From: a virus
Strand: one strand, 5' to 3'
IMG/VR virus record: IMGVR_UViG_3300009419_000013
Coordinates: 10,138 to 74,137 of that record
Length of the DNA: 64,000 bases
The translations under genes and the position numbers were made by a program. Of this stretch, positions 10,084 through 33,912 are shown one piece after another. How positions within the stretch are numbered: the first letter of the stretch is position 1; every line of letters begins with the position of its first letter. The notes under the pieces are model-generated. The model did not search any database. It was not told the origin of the DNA and saw nothing but the letters and a program-made list of their open reading frames with translations.

Positions 10084-10761
10084 TTGTCAAATACAGAAAA
10101 CCAAAACGTAGATAATTTCGATGGAGGATCTGCAGCATCCTCTGGACCAATCGAATTTATAGGTGGTTCGTCAGAATTTGCTACTGATCCTCTGGGTGGT
10201 GCTACCGCGGGATTTAATACATTATATACTAATATTGCTCTTACTTATCCTGATATTGATAGAGTAAAGGCAACATTTGAAAGATTTAATGATCCAAGTG
10301 AGATTAGATTTATAAAGGAAGCTCTCACTGTAACGAAGCAGTCACAGACCTTAAATAAGCTGGAATTGGTTGATTTCTTTCACCCTCTGCAAAATTTTTC
10401 GGAGTATCAGAAACAAAGTATGATAATAGGTCCAAGATCATCAGTCAATATAGATGCTGGATCTTTCTATGGCACCACGGGCGAGGTTTCAATGTTTATC
10501 GCTAAGGCAAATTATCTTCCCGAGGCTGGGGATAATGATAGAATTTTATTTTGGGACTATAAGGCTAATGCCAGAAATATTATGGGAAGCATAATGATTT
10601 TGACCGGTGCGGTAAAAAATGGTTCACAATGGAGAGGATGGGACATGGATCCATTTTCAACATATGGACATACTGGGGATGCTAATAGTTCCCAAGGAGG
10701 TTTTATATTCACTAATCCAACGGATTATAGTGTTAACCTAACAGTAATAGCAGCTAATTAA
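10084..10761 (+). CDS. Putative virion structural protein, paralogue A
   Basis: C-terminal domain similar to the next ORF (MG..MIL.G, GW, GG..F.NP). Confidence 0.55.
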   Translation: MSNTENQNVDNFDGGSAASSGPIEFIGGSSEFATDPLGGATAGFNTLYTNIALTYPDIDRVKATFERFNDPSEIRFIKEALTVTKQSQTLNKLELVDFFHPLQNFSEYQKQSMIIGPRSSVNIDAGSFYGTTGEVSMFIAKANYLPEAGDNDRILFWDYKANARNIMGSIMILTGAVKNGSQWRGWDMDPFSTYGHTGDANSSQGGFIFTNPTDYSVNLTVIAAN

Positions 10762-13743: not shown

Positions 13744-14103
13744 ATGGCTAAAGAATATGTTAAAAACAGCGAGCTTTTAGCAGCTGTAATAGAATCTAAA
13801 AGTAAGGGTCAACTTACACCCGATACAATAGATATGTTTATGTTAATGATAAACGGAATATCTAAAAAAATGTCATATAAGGATCCGGAGGATAAAGAGG
13901 ATTGTATGGCATTTGCAATGGAGGATCTTTGTAAATATTGGAATAGATTTAATCCTGAAAAATCAAATAATCCATTTGCTTATTATACACAGATAGCTAA
14001 AAATGGATTTGCTAAGGGATGGAAAAAAATACATCCTCCGAAAAATCCTAAAACAATACCTTTTAGCTATATAACGGGTGAGGATAATTCGTATAACGTT
14101 TAA
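13744..14103 (+). CDS. gp55: Late-transcription sigma factor (T4 gp55-like)
   Basis: YVKNSELL and KYWNRFNPEKSNNPFAYYTQIAKN, the gp55 family signature. Confidence 0.85.
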   Translation: MAKEYVKNSELLAAVIESKSKGQLTPDTIDMFMLMINGISKKMSYKDPEDKEDCMAFAMEDLCKYWNRFNPEKSNNPFAYYTQIAKNGFAKGWKKIHPPKNPKTIPFSYITGEDNSYNV

Positions 14104-14109
14104 TCTATT

Positions 14110-14595
14110 ATGGTAGATATAAAGAAAGTAAAACCTAACGGTGATCACAAATCTGGAAAATATGCACCAAGAAATCCGGATAAGTATATAGGTGATATAC
14201 ATAATATCATCTATAGATCTTCATGGGAATATAGATTCTGTATCTACTGCGATACTAATGATTCTATATTAAAATGGAGTTCAGAGCCAGTTGCTATAGA
14301 TTATTATAATCCTCTCGATAAAAAAGATCATAAGTATAATGTAGATTTCTATATAAAGGTGCAAAGGGAGGATCAAACCGAGCAGGACTGGATAATAGAA
14401 ATAAAACCCGAAAACCAGACAAAGAAACCTATATATGAAGGTGTTAATACATTAGCAAAACTTAAATCATACAATAGAAATATGCAGATTTGGATAACAA
14501 ATCAAGCAAAATTTAAAGCTGCTAAATTATGGGCAGAGAAGAGGGGATATAAATTCGGAGTTGTTGATGAGAATTTTTTATTTAAAAGTAAATAA
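14110..14595 (+). CDS. gp4: Head completion nuclease (T4 gp4-like)
   Basis: GKY.P.NPDKYIGD, YRSSWE, KWSSE, IEIKP..QT, NQAKFKAA. Confidence 0.9.
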   Translation: MVDIKKVKPNGDHKSGKYAPRNPDKYIGDIHNIIYRSSWEYRFCIYCDTNDSILKWSSEPVAIDYYNPLDKKDHKYNVDFYIKVQREDQTEQDWIIEIKPENQTKKPIYEGVNTLAKLKSYNRNMQIWITNQAKFKAAKLWAEKRGYKFGVVDENFLFKSK

Positions 14596-15197
14596 TGTAC
14601 TCTGATCTTGTTTTGGAATATAAAGATTCCATTGAAATTGGTAAGAATGTATTTACCGAGACTGATTTATATTTTTCTGATAACTATTTCTTTTCTAACA
14701 AGGAAATGATACAATTCAAACCTCCCTTTGTACCTGGAACAATATATAATTTCAACTATTTAACGGATACTAGACTAAGTGAAACTAGAAAATTCATAGA
14801 CAGAAGACCATTGATATTATGTACGAATGTATATCAAAATCCGAATTCTGGTACGATTATAGAGGGAATAGATATTATAACGGTTCCTCCCCGCATAAGA
14901 ATAGATATAATAGGGAATTTTTATGATCAGTTTTATTCGCAGGTAGAATCAAATTATTTATCGTTCCAATCAGGAGGTGCAATTACACCAGTTAATTTAA
15001 AAAAGCCGCTATTAGAAAATCTGTTAAGAAACACCGGATATAATTTCTCATTATTTGGTTTTAAATATAAATTTATAAGAAATCCAAGAATAATATCTAA
15101 TAAAGATTGGGCCAAAATTCCATATCTTACCGATAGTAACATAGAGGGGTTAAGCTTACAAACGATATATAAGGAATATCAATCGAAATTAATTTAA
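14595..15197 (+). CDS. DNA end protector (T4 gp2-like)
   Basis: PGTIYNFNY...IDRRPLIL and C-terminal DW..IP.L; adjacent to gp4. Confidence 0.55.
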   Translation: MYSDLVLEYKDSIEIGKNVFTETDLYFSDNYFFSNKEMIQFKPPFVPGTIYNFNYLTDTRLSETRKFIDRRPLILCTNVYQNPNSGTIIEGIDIITVPPRIRIDIIGNFYDQFYSQVESNYLSFQSGGAITPVNLKKPLLENLLRNTGYNFSLFGFKYKFIRNPRIISNKDWAKIPYLTDSNIEGLSLQTIYKEYQSKLI

Positions 15198-15234
15198 TCT
15201 TTTGACTAGAATAAAACATATACTTTATAAATAA

Positions 15235-16833
15235 ATGGCAGGTTTTGTAGATAATAATGATCCTTCTCAAACTCCGGTAATACAGAGAATTAGAGATTCT
15301 GTAAGAAAAATTAGTTCATTTGGTATGAAATACGATGACATGGTCATTCGTAATTCACAGGCTGTTGGTGTTACTGAGGCTGCTTTTCTTAATAAGAATA
15401 AGTCCAATGTCGAGGACGAAAGCATGCTATGGACCTTAGCTAAGCAGGATATATCATCCAGACAATTTATAGGATATTTTGATAAGGACTATAAGGGAAA
15501 GAGAGACTATCTTAGAAAATTCTCATTAAATCCTGAAGTTGAATGGGTTCTTGATACCATATGTGACGAGGCAATATCTTATGATCCATCGAATTTCTTT
15601 GCTTATCCTGATTTCATAGATCTTAGCGACGTTAATGAAAAAATAAAGGAAGATTTATATGACTCTTATAAAAAACTTTATGATGTTTGGGGATTTTCCG
15701 ATGATATAACAGCTTGGCAATATTTCAGACAATTTATAATAGATGGATTTCTTGCATTTGAGATAATCTATGATAATAAGGGTGATAATATAATCGGATT
15801 TAAGGAATTGGATCCAATTACACTTATACCTAGTGTGGAGAAACAAATAGATGGTAGCTATCTTAGCACCTGGACACAGTATCCTCAGGATCCCAAGAGA
15901 AAAAGAGTATTATATGATCCGCAAATCATCTACATATCATATGCTAAGGGTAATAGCATATCAAGAATTAGCTACATAGAAAGATTAATAAGACCTTATA
16001 ATATTCTAAGAATTATAGAATATACTAGGGTTATATGGTCGGTCATGAATGCATCATTTAAACTTAAGATGACCATTCCAATAGGAAGCAAATCCCAACA
16101 GAAGGGTATGCAAACTTTGGGTGAGTTAATGAGTATCTATAAGGAAGATATTCAGCTGAATGATGATAGTGGTGAACTTACTGTGGATGGTAGACCTAAA
16201 ATACAATTCTATAAGAATTATCTGATGCCTTCAGGTGTTAATGGTACACCAACTATAGAACCTATAAATACTGAGGGTCCTAATCTTAATGATCCTCAGC
16301 CTTTATCATACTTCTTTGACAAGTACATCCTTGAATCTAAAGTTCCACCATCCAGATTTCATAATCCTGATGGCGGAACAACTTCGCCATATTCAAATGG
16401 TGCGGAAGGACTTGATAAGGAGGAAATTAGATTTGCTAAATTTATATCTAGACTTAGATCGGTATTTCAGGAGATATTACTAAAACCTTTATGGATACAG
16501 ATGGTCAAGAAACATAAATCACTTGATGAGGATTTTATGTTTAAGAGTCAGCTTGGATTAGATTACGTTTCTGATAACCCATTCAAATTAAATCAGGAGA
16601 TGGATTTAATAAATAAAAGGAAGGAAGCAGTCGTTGCAATGACCGGATTAATGGGGGATGAGGAAAAACCATATTTCTCTAGCGCATTTCTTATAGAGAC
16701 TTTTCTTGGAATATCTAAACAGGATATCGATGCTAATAAAGAGGCATTAGAAAGAAAAGAGAAGGAGAAGAAAAAAGAGGAAGGTAAAAAAGAAGAGGGT
16801 GGAGAAGAGGAAGCTCCAGAAGTAACACTATAA
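15235..16833 (+). CDS. gp20: Portal protein, paralogue 1 (T4 gp20-like)
   Basis: PEVE..LD.I.DEAI, FRQF.IDG, LDP, SYIERLIRPYN.LR..E, KVP.SRF, EEIRFAKFI.RLR..F. Confidence 0.88.
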   Translation: MAGFVDNNDPSQTPVIQRIRDSVRKISSFGMKYDDMVIRNSQAVGVTEAAFLNKNKSNVEDESMLWTLAKQDISSRQFIGYFDKDYKGKRDYLRKFSLNPEVEWVLDTICDEAISYDPSNFFAYPDFIDLSDVNEKIKEDLYDSYKKLYDVWGFSDDITAWQYFRQFIIDGFLAFEIIYDNKGDNIIGFKELDPITLIPSVEKQIDGSYLSTWTQYPQDPKRKRVLYDPQIIYISYAKGNSISRISYIERLIRPYNILRIIEYTRVIWSVMNASFKLKMTIPIGSKSQQKGMQTLGELMSIYKEDIQLNDDSGELTVDGRPKIQFYKNYLMPSGVNGTPTIEPINTEGPNLNDPQPLSYFFDKYILESKVPPSRFHNPDGGTTSPYSNGAEGLDKEEIRFAKFISRLRSVFQEILLKPLWIQMVKKHKSLDEDFMFKSQLGLDYVSDNPFKLNQEMDLINKRKEAVVAMTGLMGDEEKPYFSSAFLIETFLGISKQDIDANKEALERKEKEKKKEEGKKEEGGEEEAPEVTL

Positions 16834-16837
16834 TAAG

Positions 16838-18454
16838 ATGGCAGGATTTTTAGACTTTTTAAAACCGAATCAATCAGCTTTAGGTAATATACTAAAGAAT
16901 CTTGGAAACATATCAAAATTTGGTATGCAGTACGATGATATGGTTGTAAAAAATTCTCAGGCTATTGGTAAGACTGAGGGATTTTTCTATAATCAGGATG
17001 GTAATGGGTTTACACAGAATGATGCTTTCTATTGGACATCATCGTATCAAGACACCAAGGTAAGAAAATATATTGCATATTTTGACCGTGATTATATCGA
17101 GAAGAGGAATTACCTTAGAAAATTTTCACTTAACGGTGAGATAGAGTTTATATTAGATACTATAACTGATGAAGCAATAGTGTATGATGATAGAAATTAT
17201 TTTGCTCAGCCATCGTTTATAAATCTTGATCTTAAGGATAAGGTAAAAGATAAGATCTCGGAGCATTACAATAAGATCTATAATGTATTTGGATTTCAGA
17301 ACACAATACTTGGGTGGCAATATTTTAAACAGTTTCTAATTGATGGATTTCTTGCATTTGAAATAATATATGATAGCAAGGGAAAAAATGTGATTGGATT
17401 TAAAGAATTGGACCCAACCTCTCTTCAGCCTATAGTAGAAAAGATTGGTGAGGAAGAACATAAACAATTCTGGATTCAGTATCCAAAAAACCCACAAATG
17501 ACCAGAAAGCTAACTAATGAGCAGGTCATTTATATTTCATATGCTAAGGGAAATATGATAACTAGAGTTAGTTATGTAGAAAGACTAGTTAGGTCATATA
17601 ATATTCTTAGAATAATGGAGAATTCTAGAATTATATGGAACGTAATGAATTCGTCATATAGATTGAAATTTATTATACCTATTGGTACACAGTCTCAACA
17701 AAAAGCAATGCAGAATCTTGGTCAGTTAATGTCGAATTATAAGGAGGATATTAATATAAATGATTCTTCTGGAGAATTAACAATAAACGGTAAACCCAAA
17801 ATTCAATTCTATAAGAATTATTTATTTCCTGAAAAGGACGGTCAGAGTCCTCAGATAGAATCACTTAATCCTAGTGGACCTGATTTTAATGTTATGGAGA
17901 ATGTGGTTTATTTCTTCAATAAGCTTAAAATGGATTCAAAAATACCTTATGCTAGATTTGCATCCAGAAATAGTACACCAGGTAATTATCAGACAAGCAT
18001 AGATCAATTGGAAAGAGATGAAATTAGATTTGAAAAATTTCTGAGAAGACTTAGATCAATTTTCCAAGAGATATTAACTAAGCCTCTTTATATACAGATG
18101 TGTCTTGATAATCCCGAATTATCAAGGGATAAGAACTTTAAAGCAAATATAGGTCTTAATTACAATAGAGACAGCGAATTCGAGGAAATGGTTGAAATGA
18201 GTAATTACACTAAGAGAACTGAATTTATAACTGGACTTGGCGAACTTAAGGTTAAGATAGGCGAGGAGGAGAAGGGATATTTCGATAAGAACTTTTTAAT
18301 ACAAAGATTTCTTGGTATGAACCCGGATCAAATAAGAATGAATGAAAAGTATAAGGAAGCTGAAGCAAAACTAGCTGAAAAAGCAGGCGGTGAAGCACCA
18401 CCTGAAGGAGAAGCACCAGCTGAAGGCGAGGAAGCACCTGAGGTAACCCTATAA
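16838..18454 (+). CDS. gp20: Portal protein, paralogue 2 (T4 gp20-like)
   Basis: Colinear with paralogue 1; RDEIRFEKFLRRLRSIFQEIL; same EEAPEVTL C-terminus. Confidence 0.88.
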   Translation: MAGFLDFLKPNQSALGNILKNLGNISKFGMQYDDMVVKNSQAIGKTEGFFYNQDGNGFTQNDAFYWTSSYQDTKVRKYIAYFDRDYIEKRNYLRKFSLNGEIEFILDTITDEAIVYDDRNYFAQPSFINLDLKDKVKDKISEHYNKIYNVFGFQNTILGWQYFKQFLIDGFLAFEIIYDSKGKNVIGFKELDPTSLQPIVEKIGEEEHKQFWIQYPKNPQMTRKLTNEQVIYISYAKGNMITRVSYVERLVRSYNILRIMENSRIIWNVMNSSYRLKFIIPIGTQSQQKAMQNLGQLMSNYKEDININDSSGELTINGKPKIQFYKNYLFPEKDGQSPQIESLNPSGPDFNVMENVVYFFNKLKMDSKIPYARFASRNSTPGNYQTSIDQLERDEIRFEKFLRRLRSIFQEILTKPLYIQMCLDNPELSRDKNFKANIGLNYNRDSEFEEMVEMSNYTKRTEFITGLGELKVKIGEEEKGYFDKNFLIQRFLGMNPDQIRMNEKYKEAEAKLAEKAGGEAPPEGEAPAEGEEAPEVTL

Positions 18455-18482: not shown

Positions 18483-19448
18483 TTGAACTTAATAGATAAA
18501 TTTGGATCTGTTAGAATATTGATTATTGGTGACGTGATGCTAGATCATTATGTTCATGGTAGCGTTACTAGGATATCACCGGAGGCACCTGTACCTATAT
18601 TGGATGTAACTCGTTCCGAATATTATTTAGGTGGATCTGGTAATGTTCTACTGAACATAAAATCAATGGGTGGTAAGGCCGATATAATTACCATGACAGG
18701 GGAGGACATTCATGGCGATATGATCGATGAGCTAATATCTGAACATAGTAATAACTCATTCGTTCTAAAGGATAGGTTAAGAAAAACAACATTAAAATCG
18801 AGATACATTTCAGGATCCAATCAATTATTCAGAGTTGATGAGGAAAGCAAAGATTATCTGGATCCCTTATTGGAGGAGAAAATAATCTCAGTATTCAATG
18901 ATACATTTCTTAATTATGATTGTATATTGATAGAGGATTATAACAAAGGACTATTGACACCAGGTATAATAAAGAATGTGATATCCAGATGTAATTCTTC
19001 AGGAATTCCAGTTATAGTGGATCCTAAGATTTTTAATGTACCTAGCTACTCTGGATGCAAATTACTAAAACCTAATTTATACGAATTTTCCATAATGACA
19101 GGGTTAGATTGTTCAGATTTAGATCTTACTGAACTGGAGGTTCATGCTCGTCAATTTATATCCGATAATAATATTGATTCGATGCTAGTAACTTTATCTG
19201 ATAAAGGACTGATTTACGTAGATGTAAATGAATCTGTTTATGATCCAGGATACCCGATGGATGTTTATGATGTTTCCGGTGCTGGAGATACTGTTATCTC
19301 TATTTTAGCATTATGTATGGTAAGCAATATAGATATTAAAAAATCATTATCCATCTGTAATATAGCTGCATCCATAGCATGCTCGAAGTCCGGGATAGCT
19401 TCAGTTGGTATAAATGAAATTCTAAATTCCAAATTTTATACATTCTAA
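18483..19448 (+). CDS. rfaE: D-glycero-D-manno-heptose-7-phosphate kinase (RfaE/HldE domain I, PfkB family)
   Basis: GDVMLDHY.HG.V.RISPEAPVP, DYNKG, VDPK, KPN..E, DVSGAGDT. Confidence 0.88.
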   Translation: MNLIDKFGSVRILIIGDVMLDHYVHGSVTRISPEAPVPILDVTRSEYYLGGSGNVLLNIKSMGGKADIITMTGEDIHGDMIDELISEHSNNSFVLKDRLRKTTLKSRYISGSNQLFRVDEESKDYLDPLLEEKIISVFNDTFLNYDCILIEDYNKGLLTPGIIKNVISRCNSSGIPVIVDPKIFNVPSYSGCKLLKPNLYEFSIMTGLDCSDLDLTELEVHARQFISDNNIDSMLVTLSDKGLIYVDVNESVYDPGYPMDVYDVSGAGDTVISILALCMVSNIDIKKSLSICNIAASIACSKSGIASVGINEILNSKFYTF

Positions 19449-30233: not shown

Positions 30234-32204
30234 ATGCCAACAACCCAAAAGCTTAATGAAGATTTAGTTTTCATCCTTGAAAGACAGGAGAGAGTACTTG
30301 AATCTAAGAAGACAGATTCGGAGGATGATTATGTTCTGGAAGGTATAGCAGCTGTTTTCGGAAAAGAAAACAATAATAATAGAATATACGAGGAAAATGA
30401 ATATTTGCCTCATTTAGACTATCTTAAAGACAAAATCGCACAGAAGAGACTGGTTGGCGAATTGGATCATCCTGAAAAATTCGACGTTTCTCTTAAGAAT
30501 ATTTCTCATATTATAGAGGATCTCGCATATGATAAGGATAAGAGAGAACTTAAAATAAAGGTTAGACTTCTTGATACACCAGCTGGTATTATAGCTAAGA
30601 AATTAGTTGATGCCGGAGTACCACTTTCAATATCATCAAGAGCAGCTGGTTCAGTTGGTAATGATAAAAAGGTTCAGATCAAGAAAATATTTACTTATGA
30701 TTTAGTTGCTGATCCTGGTTTTCAGGATGCACAATTGGAAAGAGTATATGAAAGTGCAGGATTTAGTTTCGAAGACGTTTATAAAATGAGAAACAATACA
30801 ATTTTAAACGGATTAACTTGCGTTAATGAATCTTTCGGTCTTAAAAATGAATCTTCAATGAAGATATATAAAGTTGAAAATAACGAAGAATTCAACAATC
30901 TCGTAACAAAAACAGAAAAAAATAAAGAAATCCTTATGGAGAATAAAGAATTTGTTACTGCTGATGACCTAAATCAATATTCTATTTTCTTGAAGAAAGA
31001 AATGGATTCAATGAAATCGGCTATAGCAGAAATTAACGAAAAGAGAGACTCAATTCAAGAATCTGAAAAAACATCTAATGATGATGTTGTTACAGCATTG
31101 GAAGAAAGAGTAGCTAAATTGGAAAAATATTCTGAGTACTTAGCTGAAAACTTAGATAACGCAATTAAGTATGGAGAATACGTTGCTGAAAATCTAGATC
31201 AAAACATAACATATTCTAAGTATTTAGCTGAGAATTTGGATAAAAACATTTCTTATTCTAAATATTTAGCTGAGAATGTTGATAAATCTATATCTTATTC
31301 TGAATATGTAGCGGAGAGTGTAGATAAGAATATAGAGTATTCTAAATATTTAGCTGAAAAGGTAGATCAAAATATTTCATATTCTGAATACTTAGCTGAA
31401 AATGTTGATAATAGTATTTCTTACAGCGAGCACTTAGCAGAAAACTTAAATAAAGGTATTGCTTATACTGAATACGTTGCAGAAAAATTAAACGATGGTA
31501 TCGAATATGCCGAGTATTTAGGAGAAAATCTAAATAAAAATATTCAATATTCAGACTATTTAGCTGAAAATCTAAATAAAGGTTTAGATTATTCTGAGTA
31601 TTTAGCTGAAAAAGTTAAAAGATCTATATCTTACAGTGAATATATAGCAGAAAGCTTAAATAATTCTGATATGAAATCAGTAGGACAAGATTTAATGGAA
31701 AGTGCATCAGTATCAGCATCAGCAGGTTTAAACGAATCTGGATTTGCAGGTAATTATGACAACCTTTCAGACAAAATTGATAGTTTGGTAGAATCAGTTA
31801 AAACACAAAAAACTGAATCAAATATAAACGAAGCTTCAAAATCATTTGAAGCGCCAGCCAACACACAAAAGGCACAAGAATCAGCTCTTAATGAAAACGA
31901 GAGCACAACAAAAACAGGTCTTAAGTTTATTGACGAAATGCCTGAAGAATTTGCACAAGTTTGGGAATCACTTAATGAAGGACACAAGCAATCAATCGTT
32001 GCTCAAAGTAACTTCTATAGATTAGATTCTCCTTACCAAATCAAAAACTTCTGGTCAACAAGACAACTTGGAACCAAAACAGTTGGAGTTCAAAAATTGA
32101 ACGAGAGCGAAGAAACAGTGCCAAGTGCAACAACACAAGCTTATTCAAGCGATTACATGGCTTCGATAGCTGCTGCACTAGAGCAAAAATTTCCAAAAAG
32201 ATAA
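30234..32204 (+). CDS. gp21: Prohead protease (gp21-like) fused to scaffold/core (gp22-like)
   Basis: LEGI, N.N.RIY, GELDHP, SHII, LLDTPAG, ISSRAAGSV, YDLVADP; C-terminal coiled coil with 14-aa repeats. Confidence 0.9.
   Translation: MPTTQKLNEDLVFILERQERVLESKKTDSEDDYVLEGIAAVFGKENNNNRIYEENEYLPHLDYLKDKIAQKRLVGELDHPEKFDVSLKNISHIIEDLAYDKDKRELKIKVRLLDTPAGIIAKKLVDAGVPLSISSRAAGSVGNDKKVQIKKIFTYDLVADPGFQDAQLERVYESAGFSFEDVYKMRNNTILNGLTCVNESFGLKNESSMKIYKVENNEEFNNLVTKTEKNKEILMENKEFVTADDLNQYSIFLKKEMDSMKSAIAEINEKRDSIQESEKTSNDDVVTALEERVAKLEKYSEYLAENLDNAIKYGEYVAENLDQNITYSKYLAENLDKNISYSKYLAENVDKSISYSEYVAESVDKNIEYSKYLAEKVDQNISYSEYLAENVDNSISYSEHLAENLNKGIAYTEYVAEKLNDGIEYAEYLGENLNKNIQYSDYLAENLNKGLDYSEYLAEKVKRSISYSEYIAESLNNSDMKSVGQDLMESASVSASAGLNESGFAGNYDNLSDKIDSLVESVKTQKTESNINEASKSFEAPANTQKAQESALNENESTTKTGLKFIDEMPEEFAQVWESLNEGHKQSIVAQSNFYRLDSPYQIKNFWSTRQLGTKTVGVQKLNESEETVPSATTQAYSSDYMASIAAALEQKFPKR
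31125..31670 (+). repeat. About 13 x 42-nt (14-aa, xYSEYLAENLDKNI) coding tandem repeats
   Basis: Visible in the translation of 30234..32204. Confidence 0.92.
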
Positions 32205-32220
32205 AAAATAAAAACAAATC

Positions 32221-33912
32221 ATGAAATTGATCAACGAACAAGAAATCTATGATACATGGTCTCCGATTATCGAGAGCAAAGCTGGTATCACAGAAGAAGG
32301 AAAAAAAGGATGGTTGACTAAATATTGTCATTATCATTCATTAAACGAGTCTGCAGGTGCTTATAACACTTTAGGAGTTGTTAACGGTATGGGTGCAGTT
32401 GCGCCACCAGCATACCCAGGTATGGCATCTTTCCAAGGTGGTAATGCTAACGCTGGTTTCTATAACACAGGAAATCAAGGATCTGGAGATAAATTCCCAT
32501 CATTATTGCCATTAGCTATTCAGGTAGCTGCTAAGACTGTAGGTTTTGATATCGTTCCTGTTATCCCTATGTCAGGACCAACTGGTATCTTATCTTACTT
32601 AGATTACGTATATTCAGGTGGTAAAATTGCTGGTGCTACATCTGCTACTTCAGGAGATTCATTAGCTAAAGCTCCTACAATGATTAAATTCCCAGTTGCA
32701 CAAGGATCTTCTGCAGGTCTTACTGGTGCTACTGCTGGAACATTCGCAGTAGGTACTGTTTACACAGTTACTAATGGAGGTGTATTAACACTTAAATTCG
32801 TAGGTTTATCAAGAATCGATGGTTTCCCAATCTTCGAAATCGAAAACATTACTGATGGTTACAATGTTGCTGGTATTATTACAGCTTCAGGAAGTTTCAA
32901 CGTTGCTACTTCTACAATGTTTACTGCAGGTTCTGCACAATTAGTTAAAGCTTTAGAAGATCATATCCAAGGATTCTCTGGTGCTGGTTTCAACAACACC
33001 GCTGACTGGCAAGGTCCTTACGTAGATGGTACTAAAACTTACAACCCTATGTTAAGAGGAGTTGGTGAGTCTACTTACTACAACTCAATGGGTCTTTCTA
33101 CTTTCACTAAATTCGTGGAGGCTGAAACTTTCCAAGTTGCTGCTTCAGTTACAACTGAGCAAATCCAAGATCTTAACAAACAATTCGGTATCGACGTTAT
33201 CTCAATGATCGAGAACGCATTGGTTAATGAGGTTTCTCAAGCAATTAACAAACACATCTTATCAAGAGCATTCGCTTTAGGTTGGTCTAACCATAACCAA
33301 TTCTTCAATGTTGAAAACCAAAACCTTAACTTGAACTTAGTTCTTGGTGGTGGTGCTGGTACAACTTTAGCTTATGTTAACAAATCAGATGCTACACAAT
33401 CTATGCCTATCCCAGCTGGACCAGCTACAGGAGGTTACGAGAACTTATCAACTTTACAAAGAAGATTATTCTCAAGAATCCTTGCAGGTGCTAACGTGGT
33501 AGCTAATAGAGGTAGAAGAGGTCCTGCTAACTTCGTAGTAACGAATGCAGCAGTTGCAAGTGCACTTCAAGATATTTCTCAATTCACTTTCGCTCCATTC
33601 TCTAATACACTTACTCAAAATAACGGTACTTTATACCCTGTAGGTTCTCTTGCTGGTATGACAGTTTACGTAGATCAGAATATGAACTATAGCGATACAA
33701 GAGTATTAATTGGTAGAAAAGGTGGTGATGATGAACCAGGATTAAAATTCATGCCTTACATGATGGCAGAATCGATTCAGACTATCTCTGAAGGTACAAT
33801 GTCACCTAAAATCGCGGTTAAATCTAGATACGCTTTAGTAGAAGCTGGTTTCTTACCTGAAACTATGTACTTAACATTATTCGTTAACGTACCTGCTGGT
33901 GGTTTAGCATAA
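32221..33912 (+). CDS. gp23: Major capsid protein (T4 gp23-like)
   Basis: V.PMSGPTG, T.EQIQDL, L.NEV...IN, RGRRGPANFVV, G.LAG.TVYVD, FMPY, KSRYAL; strongly biased codons. Confidence 0.93.
   Translation: MKLINEQEIYDTWSPIIESKAGITEEGKKGWLTKYCHYHSLNESAGAYNTLGVVNGMGAVAPPAYPGMASFQGGNANAGFYNTGNQGSGDKFPSLLPLAIQVAAKTVGFDIVPVIPMSGPTGILSYLDYVYSGGKIAGATSATSGDSLAKAPTMIKFPVAQGSSAGLTGATAGTFAVGTVYTVTNGGVLTLKFVGLSRIDGFPIFEIENITDGYNVAGIITASGSFNVATSTMFTAGSAQLVKALEDHIQGFSGAGFNNTADWQGPYVDGTKTYNPMLRGVGESTYYNSMGLSTFTKFVEAETFQVAASVTTEQIQDLNKQFGIDVISMIENALVNEVSQAINKHILSRAFALGWSNHNQFFNVENQNLNLNLVLGGGAGTTLAYVNKSDATQSMPIPAGPATGGYENLSTLQRRLFSRILAGANVVANRGRRGPANFVVTNAAVASALQDISQFTFAPFSNTLTQNNGTLYPVGSLAGMTVYVDQNMNYSDTRVLIGRKGGDDEPGLKFMPYMMAESIQTISEGTMSPKIAVKSRYALVEAGFLPETMYLTLFVNVPAGGLA

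Follow-up and report, generated by a model that had tools for sequence, protein, structure and literature searches.

We found that two complete portal genes of the T4 gp20 type, hereafter A and B, stand in tandem in IMG/VR virus record IMGVR_UViG_3300009419_000013, and that this pair is real, ancient and kept essential by selection, with neither copy degenerating. The window analysed here, a stretch of 64,000 nucleotides (nt; positions 10,138 to 74,137 of the record), belongs to a 74-kb IMG/VR fragment of an uncultured phage of ~370 kb, whose complete, 98% identical relative with terminal repeats measures 373,485 bp. To our knowledge, all characterised tailed phages have one portal gene, the product of which forms a homododecamer. 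Whether A and B co-assemble into one mixed portal ring is, on the sequence evidence set out below, about an even call. The two genes and the parts of them that carry the argument are as follows (positions are those of the window; lengths in amino acids, aa).

15235..16833, + strand: portal paralogue A, 532 aa, T4 gp20 family (PF07230 and phrog_213)
16834..16837, + strand: spacer TAAG between the stop codon of A and the ATG of B, 4 nt (TAA-TAAG-ATG)
16838..18454, + strand: portal paralogue B, 538 aa, T4 gp20 family (PF07230 and phrog_213)
16225..16248, + strand: inner clip loop of A, residues 331-338, consensus M-P-S-G-x-N-G-T, aligning with T4 gp20 336-343
17825..17848, + strand: inner clip loop of B, residues 330-337, consensus F-P-E-x-x-G-x-S
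16747..16830, + strand: C-terminal tail of A, K/E-rich linker followed by EEAPEVTL, predicted to be disordered
18371..18451, + strand: C-terminal tail of B, E/A/G/P-rich linker followed by EEAPEVTL, predicted to be disordered

Both proteins match the Portal_T4 profile PF07230 (curated cut-off = 22.9 bits) over nearly its whole length (A, E = 3.5e-57, 194.5 bits, profile positions 7-431 of 433; B, E = 2e-69, 234.8 bits, positions 3-432 of 433), and both match the phrog_213 family 'portal protein'. A phmmer search of PDB sequences with B returned 3JA7_A (E = 1.4e-23), 6UZC_E (E = 1.8e-23) and 9LU6 (E = 2e-23). The paralogues are 51% identical to each other across 518 aa with 7 gaps (BLASTP), begin with MAGFVD (A) and MAGFLD (B), and both end in EEAPEVTL after an acidic low-complexity linker. 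A preliminary description, made from the letters of this DNA, had reported two intact tandem gp20-type open reading frames (ORFs) of 532 and 538 aa, 4 nt apart, with MAGF(V/L)D starts and identical ends after an acidic linker; the coordinates, PF07230 and phrog_213 agree with it, and the terminal motifs are seen in both ORFs. A terminator scan gave no hit between A and B, and since neither a promoter-like nor a terminator-like site fits into the 4-nt spacer, the two genes are probably co-transcribed with coupled translation.

The arrangement is not an artefact of assembly, which the same description had called unlikely and which is now excluded, because three other public runs yielded contigs that cross from A into B with no indel or joint (X2, 16617-17550; X3, 15468-17347; X5, 16148-17102) and 75 further IMG/VR contigs show the same layout. 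Within both portal genes, 13 of the 14 single-nucleotide polymorphisms (SNPs) seen in the other runs are synonymous, and the sole non-synonymous one falls in the low-complexity tail of B. Near-identical strains (window 15131..18401) occur in public runs labelled as subsurface and freshwater metagenomes.

We then surveyed the relatives of the pair. An IMG/VR search with B recovered 227 relatives, the best 80 loci of which (68-98% identity) constitute group 1. Room for both genes exists in 75 group-1 loci, and in every one of them A precedes B on the same strand with a spacer of 1-23 nt; the other 5 of the 80 loci are cut by contig ends. Orthologues of A are 65-99% identical in all related loci and those of B 68-98%. 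A more distant group 2, reached through the representative P0123, contributed 47 distinct A'-B' pairs with spacers of 2-11 nt, and the two groups are only ~50-55% identical to each other. Overall, the identical A-then-B order was present in >120 distinct genomes, complete genomes with direct terminal repeats (373, 430 and 434 kb) carry exactly two full-length portal genes each, and loss of either copy was not seen in any of 102 distinct genomes. Thus, conservation of both copies, which the preliminary description had proposed to check, extends to every locus with room, and the pair is kept by every sampled clade member in which both genes could fit. The sister group around P0121 has a single portal per record, and the huge phages LR756500, LR756502, LR756504 and Lak-A2 have a single full-length portal each. 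An apparent second portal in LR756501 and LR756503 was rejected, as the second BLAST place is only a 60-residue C-terminal fragment; in these 735-kb genomes it lies 57 kb from the real portal (LR756501.1 15166-15351, - strand, profile positions 374-431).

Phylogenetic analysis dated the pair to before the split of the two groups. In a tree of 229 portal sequences (LG+gamma model; 204 of them paralogues A, A', B or B'), A and A' are monophyletic with a support of 1.0, and B and B' with 0.971; all 204 paralogue sequences also form one clade (0.986) with the single-copy relatives outside, and the single-copy group P0121/P0122 is its sister (0.997). This topology, with A+A' and B+B' each monophyletic, points to one old tandem duplication in the common ancestor of groups 1 and 2. 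The stem branches that follow the duplication are symmetric (0.139 and 0.124). Ratios of non-synonymous to synonymous substitution rates (dN/dS; Nei-Gojobori, unsaturated pairs) were 0.022 for A and 0.016 for B, and mean dN was 0.1728 for A and B alike over 1540 genome pairs (r = 0.956). These estimates indicate purifying selection of equal strength on A and B (dN/dS ~0.02), so that the neutral evolution of one copy, against which the preliminary description had suggested a phylogeny and dN/dS, does not apply to this old duplication. Very recent conversion of the whole gene was considered and rejected, as A and B of one genome are saturated in dS, and codons in the gene body are identical only 1.11 times as often as expected.

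We next compared the two copies in structure and sequence. AlphaFold2 monomer models of A and B have an identical order of helices and strands. Their mean predicted local distance difference test scores (pLDDT) are 59 for A and 54 for B; beyond the wing the models are of low confidence, with a poor clip and stem, and the tails reach ~33 (A, residues 519-532) and ~30 (B, residues 517-538). A Foldseek search with model A returned T4 gp20 chains at ranks 1-13 (best E = 1.4e-15), followed by other phage portals, with template modelling (TM) scores of ~0.35-0.44. Both copies are thus predicted to keep the portal fold, with wing, stem, clip, tunnel loop and crown in order. We mapped an alignment of 527 columns onto the T4 gp20 domains as defined in PMC4493910 and found 127 columns that are conserved and identical in A and B, with similar conservation in each domain. 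Conservation in one copy only was seen at 38 columns for A and 35 for B (~14% of aligned positions), and fixed differences between A and B numbered 7 at the 90% level and 11 at the 80% level. Of these 11, 8 lie within T4 gp20 323-399 (~15% of columns): sites in the clip strand and inner clip loop (A/B M331/F330, N336/G335 and T338/S337), one site in helix alpha7 of the stem, and three D/E swaps where the tunnel loop ends. At some of the fixed sites the ancestral state is that of A and at others that of B, which leaves neither copy simply 'derived'. In T4 gp20, the clip sheet and tunnel loops touch the neighbouring subunit, the inner clip, channel and tunnel loops touch DNA, residues 336-343 form the channel-entrance loop, and seven salt bridges join the subunits of the portal (PMC4493910). 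By this mapping, the fixed A/B differences appear to concentrate in loops that in T4 gp20 contact the neighbouring subunit and the DNA.

The C-terminal tails gave a second kind of evidence. EEAPEVTL is encoded with the same codon in A and B at just 4 of 8 residues, and a scan of the window found no similar tail in its other ORFs. Across group 1, the tail ends of A and B covary by genome (APEVTL, APAVTL, PPQVTL, PAVTI, TATL, EAVTL), and the last five residues of A equal those of B in 24 of 56 genomes, compared with a mean of 7 and a maximum of 14 under shuffling that ignores kinship. Codons at shared tail residues are identical in 122 cases versus 75 expected, against a ratio of only 1.11 in the gene body, so occasional gene conversion contributes; 40% of the identical tail residues are encoded by different codons, so selection on the tail peptide acts as well. 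Of the genomes compared, 36 have the hydrophobic end motif in A and B alike, 13 have it in B only, and 5 (group 1) and 44 (group 2) in A only. A further 4 genomes fail the strict three-residue motif in both copies and still end in L, I or V. Because the motif is lost from either copy and never from both, the tails may be redundant within one assembly.

Such tails are widespread in the family. Single-copy portals of huge phages end in NFDF, EFEF, APTF and similar motifs, and T4 gp20 finishes with an acidic stretch and an aromatic last residue (...DPDQEQEDF), the tail residues being disordered in the cryo-electron microscopy structure. A disordered acidic or Gly/Ala/Pro-rich linker with a hydrophobic end is therefore an ancestral gp20-family trait and, as T4 gp20 has one, an old feature of the family, not an invention of the duplicated genes. 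T4 gp20 initially co-purifies with the scaffold protein gp22 (PMC4493910). The shared end of A and B had been put down to a common binding or cleavage site; of these, binding fares better, in the form of an ancestral docking tail kept alike by selection and occasional gene conversion, and cleavage found no support. The acidic disordered tails would project into the capsid interior and would dock one shared internal partner, for example a scaffold or core component. A shared docking partner would explain why the tails are kept alike and why the motif is lost from either copy but not from both.

When all 68 ORFs on the + strand of the 74-kb record were compared with one another, just two paralogue pairs emerged, the portals and the tail tubes. 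The latter are:

1864..2418, + strand: tail-tube paralogue 1 (T1), 184 aa
2435..3010, + strand: tail-tube paralogue 2 (T2), 191 aa

The two tube proteins are 56% identical and share their start (MAGLPHF) and their end (DYWEDLFL). Two tandem tube copies are present in all 18 two-portal records that cover the tube region, and a single copy in all 8 single-portal records; hence the tail-tube gene is doubled in exactly the same genomes as the portal gene, an observation new here. The tube tree unites T1 of both groups in one clade (0.983), and T2 of both groups clusters together with one single-copy sequence inside at a weak support of 0.448. The tube tree thus suggests that the portal and tube duplications are of similar age, with the tube node not firmly placed, and their shared distribution should be read as a lead and not as a statistic, since it probably reflects one event on one branch.

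The surroundings of the pair are those of a late morphogenesis region. Three conserved neighbours lie directly upstream:

13744..14103, + strand: gp55-like late sigma factor
14110..14595, + strand: gp4-like head-completion nuclease
14595..15197, + strand: 200-aa ORF of no known family

Sigma factor, nuclease and 200-aa ORF come in this order before the pair in both groups, and before the one portal gene in the sister clade; the duplication therefore took place in situ. Each complete genome encodes one full-length large terminase, which was found with T4 gp17 as the query, whereas the PF17289 profile gave no terminase match; the portal pair serves one packaging motor. The window also carries genes for a tail sheath, a tube, the gp26/51 region, a gp21-like protease, a gp23-like capsid protein and the baseplate. 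The prohead protease (30234..32204, + strand) has 656 aa, with the gp21-like domain (phrog_207) over residues 20-310; after this domain come ~350 residues that match no family, possibly a fused scaffold. Directly behind the protease gene lies that of the gp23-like major capsid protein (32221..33912, + strand), and complete relatives have a second gp23-like gene of ~300 aa elsewhere in the genome, possibly for the vertex protein. Downstream, a pfkB-family sugar kinase gene (18483..19448, + strand) stands between portal B and an ATP-dependent DNA ligase gene. It occupies that position in 31 of 80 group-1 loci and in no group-2 locus, and is thus an accessory insertion in an otherwise fixed order. 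No purine run resembling a Shine-Dalgarno sequence precedes the start of A (15225..15234, ...TTTATAAATAAATG) or that of B (16828..16837, ...CTATAATAAGATG), and some metagenome bins with portal orthologues carry the name Chitinophagia; together, these two observations hint at a host among the Bacteroidota.

How, then, might two portal proteins serve one phage? Co-expressed paralogues of a homomeric ring co-assemble by default, and T4 tolerates mixed rings of wild-type and fusion gp20. On the reading that we place at about even probability, a gp20-type gene would have been duplicated in tandem in the ancestor of the clade (complete genomes of 373-434 kb), with both copies needed since, and A and B would be made from one late transcript in about equal amounts. 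They would form, at the one packaging vertex, a single mixed dodecameric ring for one terminase and one neck and tail, with subunits that have diverged mainly in the channel-lining and neighbour-touching loops. This mixed ring is favoured because of the default mixing of co-expressed paralogues, surfaces of interface size that are mostly identical, fixed differences that sit in contact loops, and tails that behave as if redundant within one assembly; the tight coupling of the genes and the one terminase lend it indirect support. An ordered A6B6 alternation, with six-fold in place of twelve-fold symmetry, is conceivable as a further step. The preliminary description had proposed either a heteromeric portal, for example 6+6, or two specialised vertices. 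A heteromeric ring is the most economical of these, while the 6+6 order is pure conjecture and two vertices are without support.

Several points weigh against a mixed ring. Virion presence, contact between A and B, co-assembly, stoichiometry and the partner of the tails are all inferred from the genes. The fixed differences are few, perhaps too few to enforce an ordered alternation, and the ring may be a random mixture; equally, a few residues could suffice to keep two homomeric rings apart, and equal expression with equal constraint would also fit two separate rings, one of each per virion. A search of proteins of 932-2660 aa found no fused A-B protein, which is weak evidence in the same direction. 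Finally, the monomer models (pLDDT 59 and 54) are of low confidence in the clip and stem, which limits what they can tell about the interfaces.

It is possible, although we think it rather unlikely, that A and B build two separate homododecameric rings with different places or roles in one particle, for instance a true portal for packaging and ejection together with another ring that is stacked on it, lies inside the head or sits at another vertex. All portal domains are kept and both copies evolve at the same rate, as two working rings would demand; tightly coupled expression fits one of each per virion, the fixed differences in the channel loop could mean two channels with different properties, and the doubled tail-tube gene could point to a duplicated or two-part conduit. 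Set against these are the single large terminase and the 127 identical conserved positions versus 7-11 fixed ones, which make the interfaces probably too alike to prevent mixing. The reciprocal loss of the tail motif would be odd if each ring needed its own tail, and two rings require a segregation that is not obviously encoded in the sequence. We know of no tailed phage with two portal rings.

Less probable still is a division in which one copy is the virion portal and the other a non-structural factor, such as a template or chaperone for ring assembly, a terminase regulator or a decoy for portal-recognising host sensors. There are cases of duplicated structural genes that were taken over as assembly factors, and the ~14% of positions conserved in one copy only (38 in A, 35 in B) suggest some division of labour. 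In both copies, however, clip, stem, tunnel loop and crown are present, with no sign of relaxation or truncation; branch stems and rates are symmetric, the divided ancestral states at fixed sites leave neither copy derived, and for a factor needed in catalytic amounts one would not expect translational coupling, with a spacing of 1-23 nt, in every genome. We regard it as very improbable that the two are alternatives, with an A ring or a B ring per particle depending, for example, on host, condition or capsid size. Switching between paralogues has a precedent in receptor-binding proteins and both copies look fully competent, but they share one transcription unit with no regulatory element between the genes, the order is the same in >120 distinct genomes under exactly equal constraint, and a copy in occasional use should be lost or relaxed in some lineages, of which none was seen. 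An assembly artefact or a neutral recent duplicate being lost, which has the general rarity of portal duplicates in its favour and nothing more, can practically be dismissed given 51% identity with saturated dS, a junction bridged in many samples and in three other runs, dN/dS of ~0.02 in both copies, and a duplication that predates the split of groups ~50-55% identical.

Among known systems, T4 gp20 (PF07230; PDB 3JA7, 6UZC, 9MKB and 9LU6/9LU7) shares with A and B the family, the order of domains from N-terminal arm to crown and a disordered acidic tail with a hydrophobic end residue (...EQEDF in gp20). In both phages, the portal gene lies in a late morphogenesis module, with genes for a gp4-like nuclease and a gp55-like sigma factor close by; our window also encodes a gp21-like protease and a gp23-like capsid protein. 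T4 differs in having one portal gene and a homododecamer, in contrast to two retained, 51% identical paralogues, and its basic inner-clip-loop residues R338 and K342 are conserved in neither A nor B, the inner clip loop being the element that differs most consistently between the two. The nearest portals, at 35-48% identity, are those of LR756500 (462 kb), LR756502/LR756504/LR745206 (~635-642 kb), LR756501/3 (735 kb), the Lak megaphages and the P0121 clade. These single-portal huge phages and the P0121 clade have a low-complexity tail like that of A and B, and the sister clade also shares the upstream synteny, whereas they differ in having one full-length portal and one tail-tube gene of this family. 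By analogy only, and with no homology, T4 gp23 and gp24 (major capsid protein and its vertex paralogue) illustrate a duplicated subunit kept for a defined non-equivalent position. The thermosome/CCT, proteasome rings and RuvBL1/2 are rings built from paralogues and follow the logic proposed here for a pair known from its genes, again as an analogy only. In the T4 connector, gp20 and gp13 are 12-mers and gp14 is a 6-mer, such that identical subunits sit in alternating environments at the step from 12-fold to 6-fold (PMC12929587). That step lies in the neck, between gp13 and gp14 with one gene each, and involves no alternation of paralogues; an A6B6 portal, if true, would shift it into the portal itself, which is speculation. 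In the literature, we found no report of two, duplicated, paralogous or heteromeric portals in tailed phages, and a comparison of jumbo phages treats the portal as a single gp20 orthologue (PMC7824862). A preprint on a poxvirus 'portal' that names heterododecamers was rejected as a precedent, as its proteins are unrelated.

Annotation and completeness tools that count the portal as a single-copy marker will misjudge these genomes. The portal is the textbook single-gene homododecamer of tailed phages and herpesviruses: capsid assembly starts from it, the packaging motor docks on it, and it both senses headful filling and controls ejection. That the tail tube is doubled in parallel suggests that the change concerns the whole DNA channel. 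In its boldest form, which we put forward tentatively and consider unlikely, the whole conduit would have been rebuilt from paralogue pairs, an ordered A6B6 portal with an alternating or stacked two-protein tube, both pairs having become fixed on a single ancestral branch where one change altered the symmetry or the gating of the channel from head to tail in very large phages. If true, the pair would be the first two-subunit portal or the first case of two portal rings, and these phages would serve as a natural experiment for asking which functions of a portal can be divided between subunits and for studying symmetry mismatches at the vertex and the entrenchment of paralogues in viral machines.

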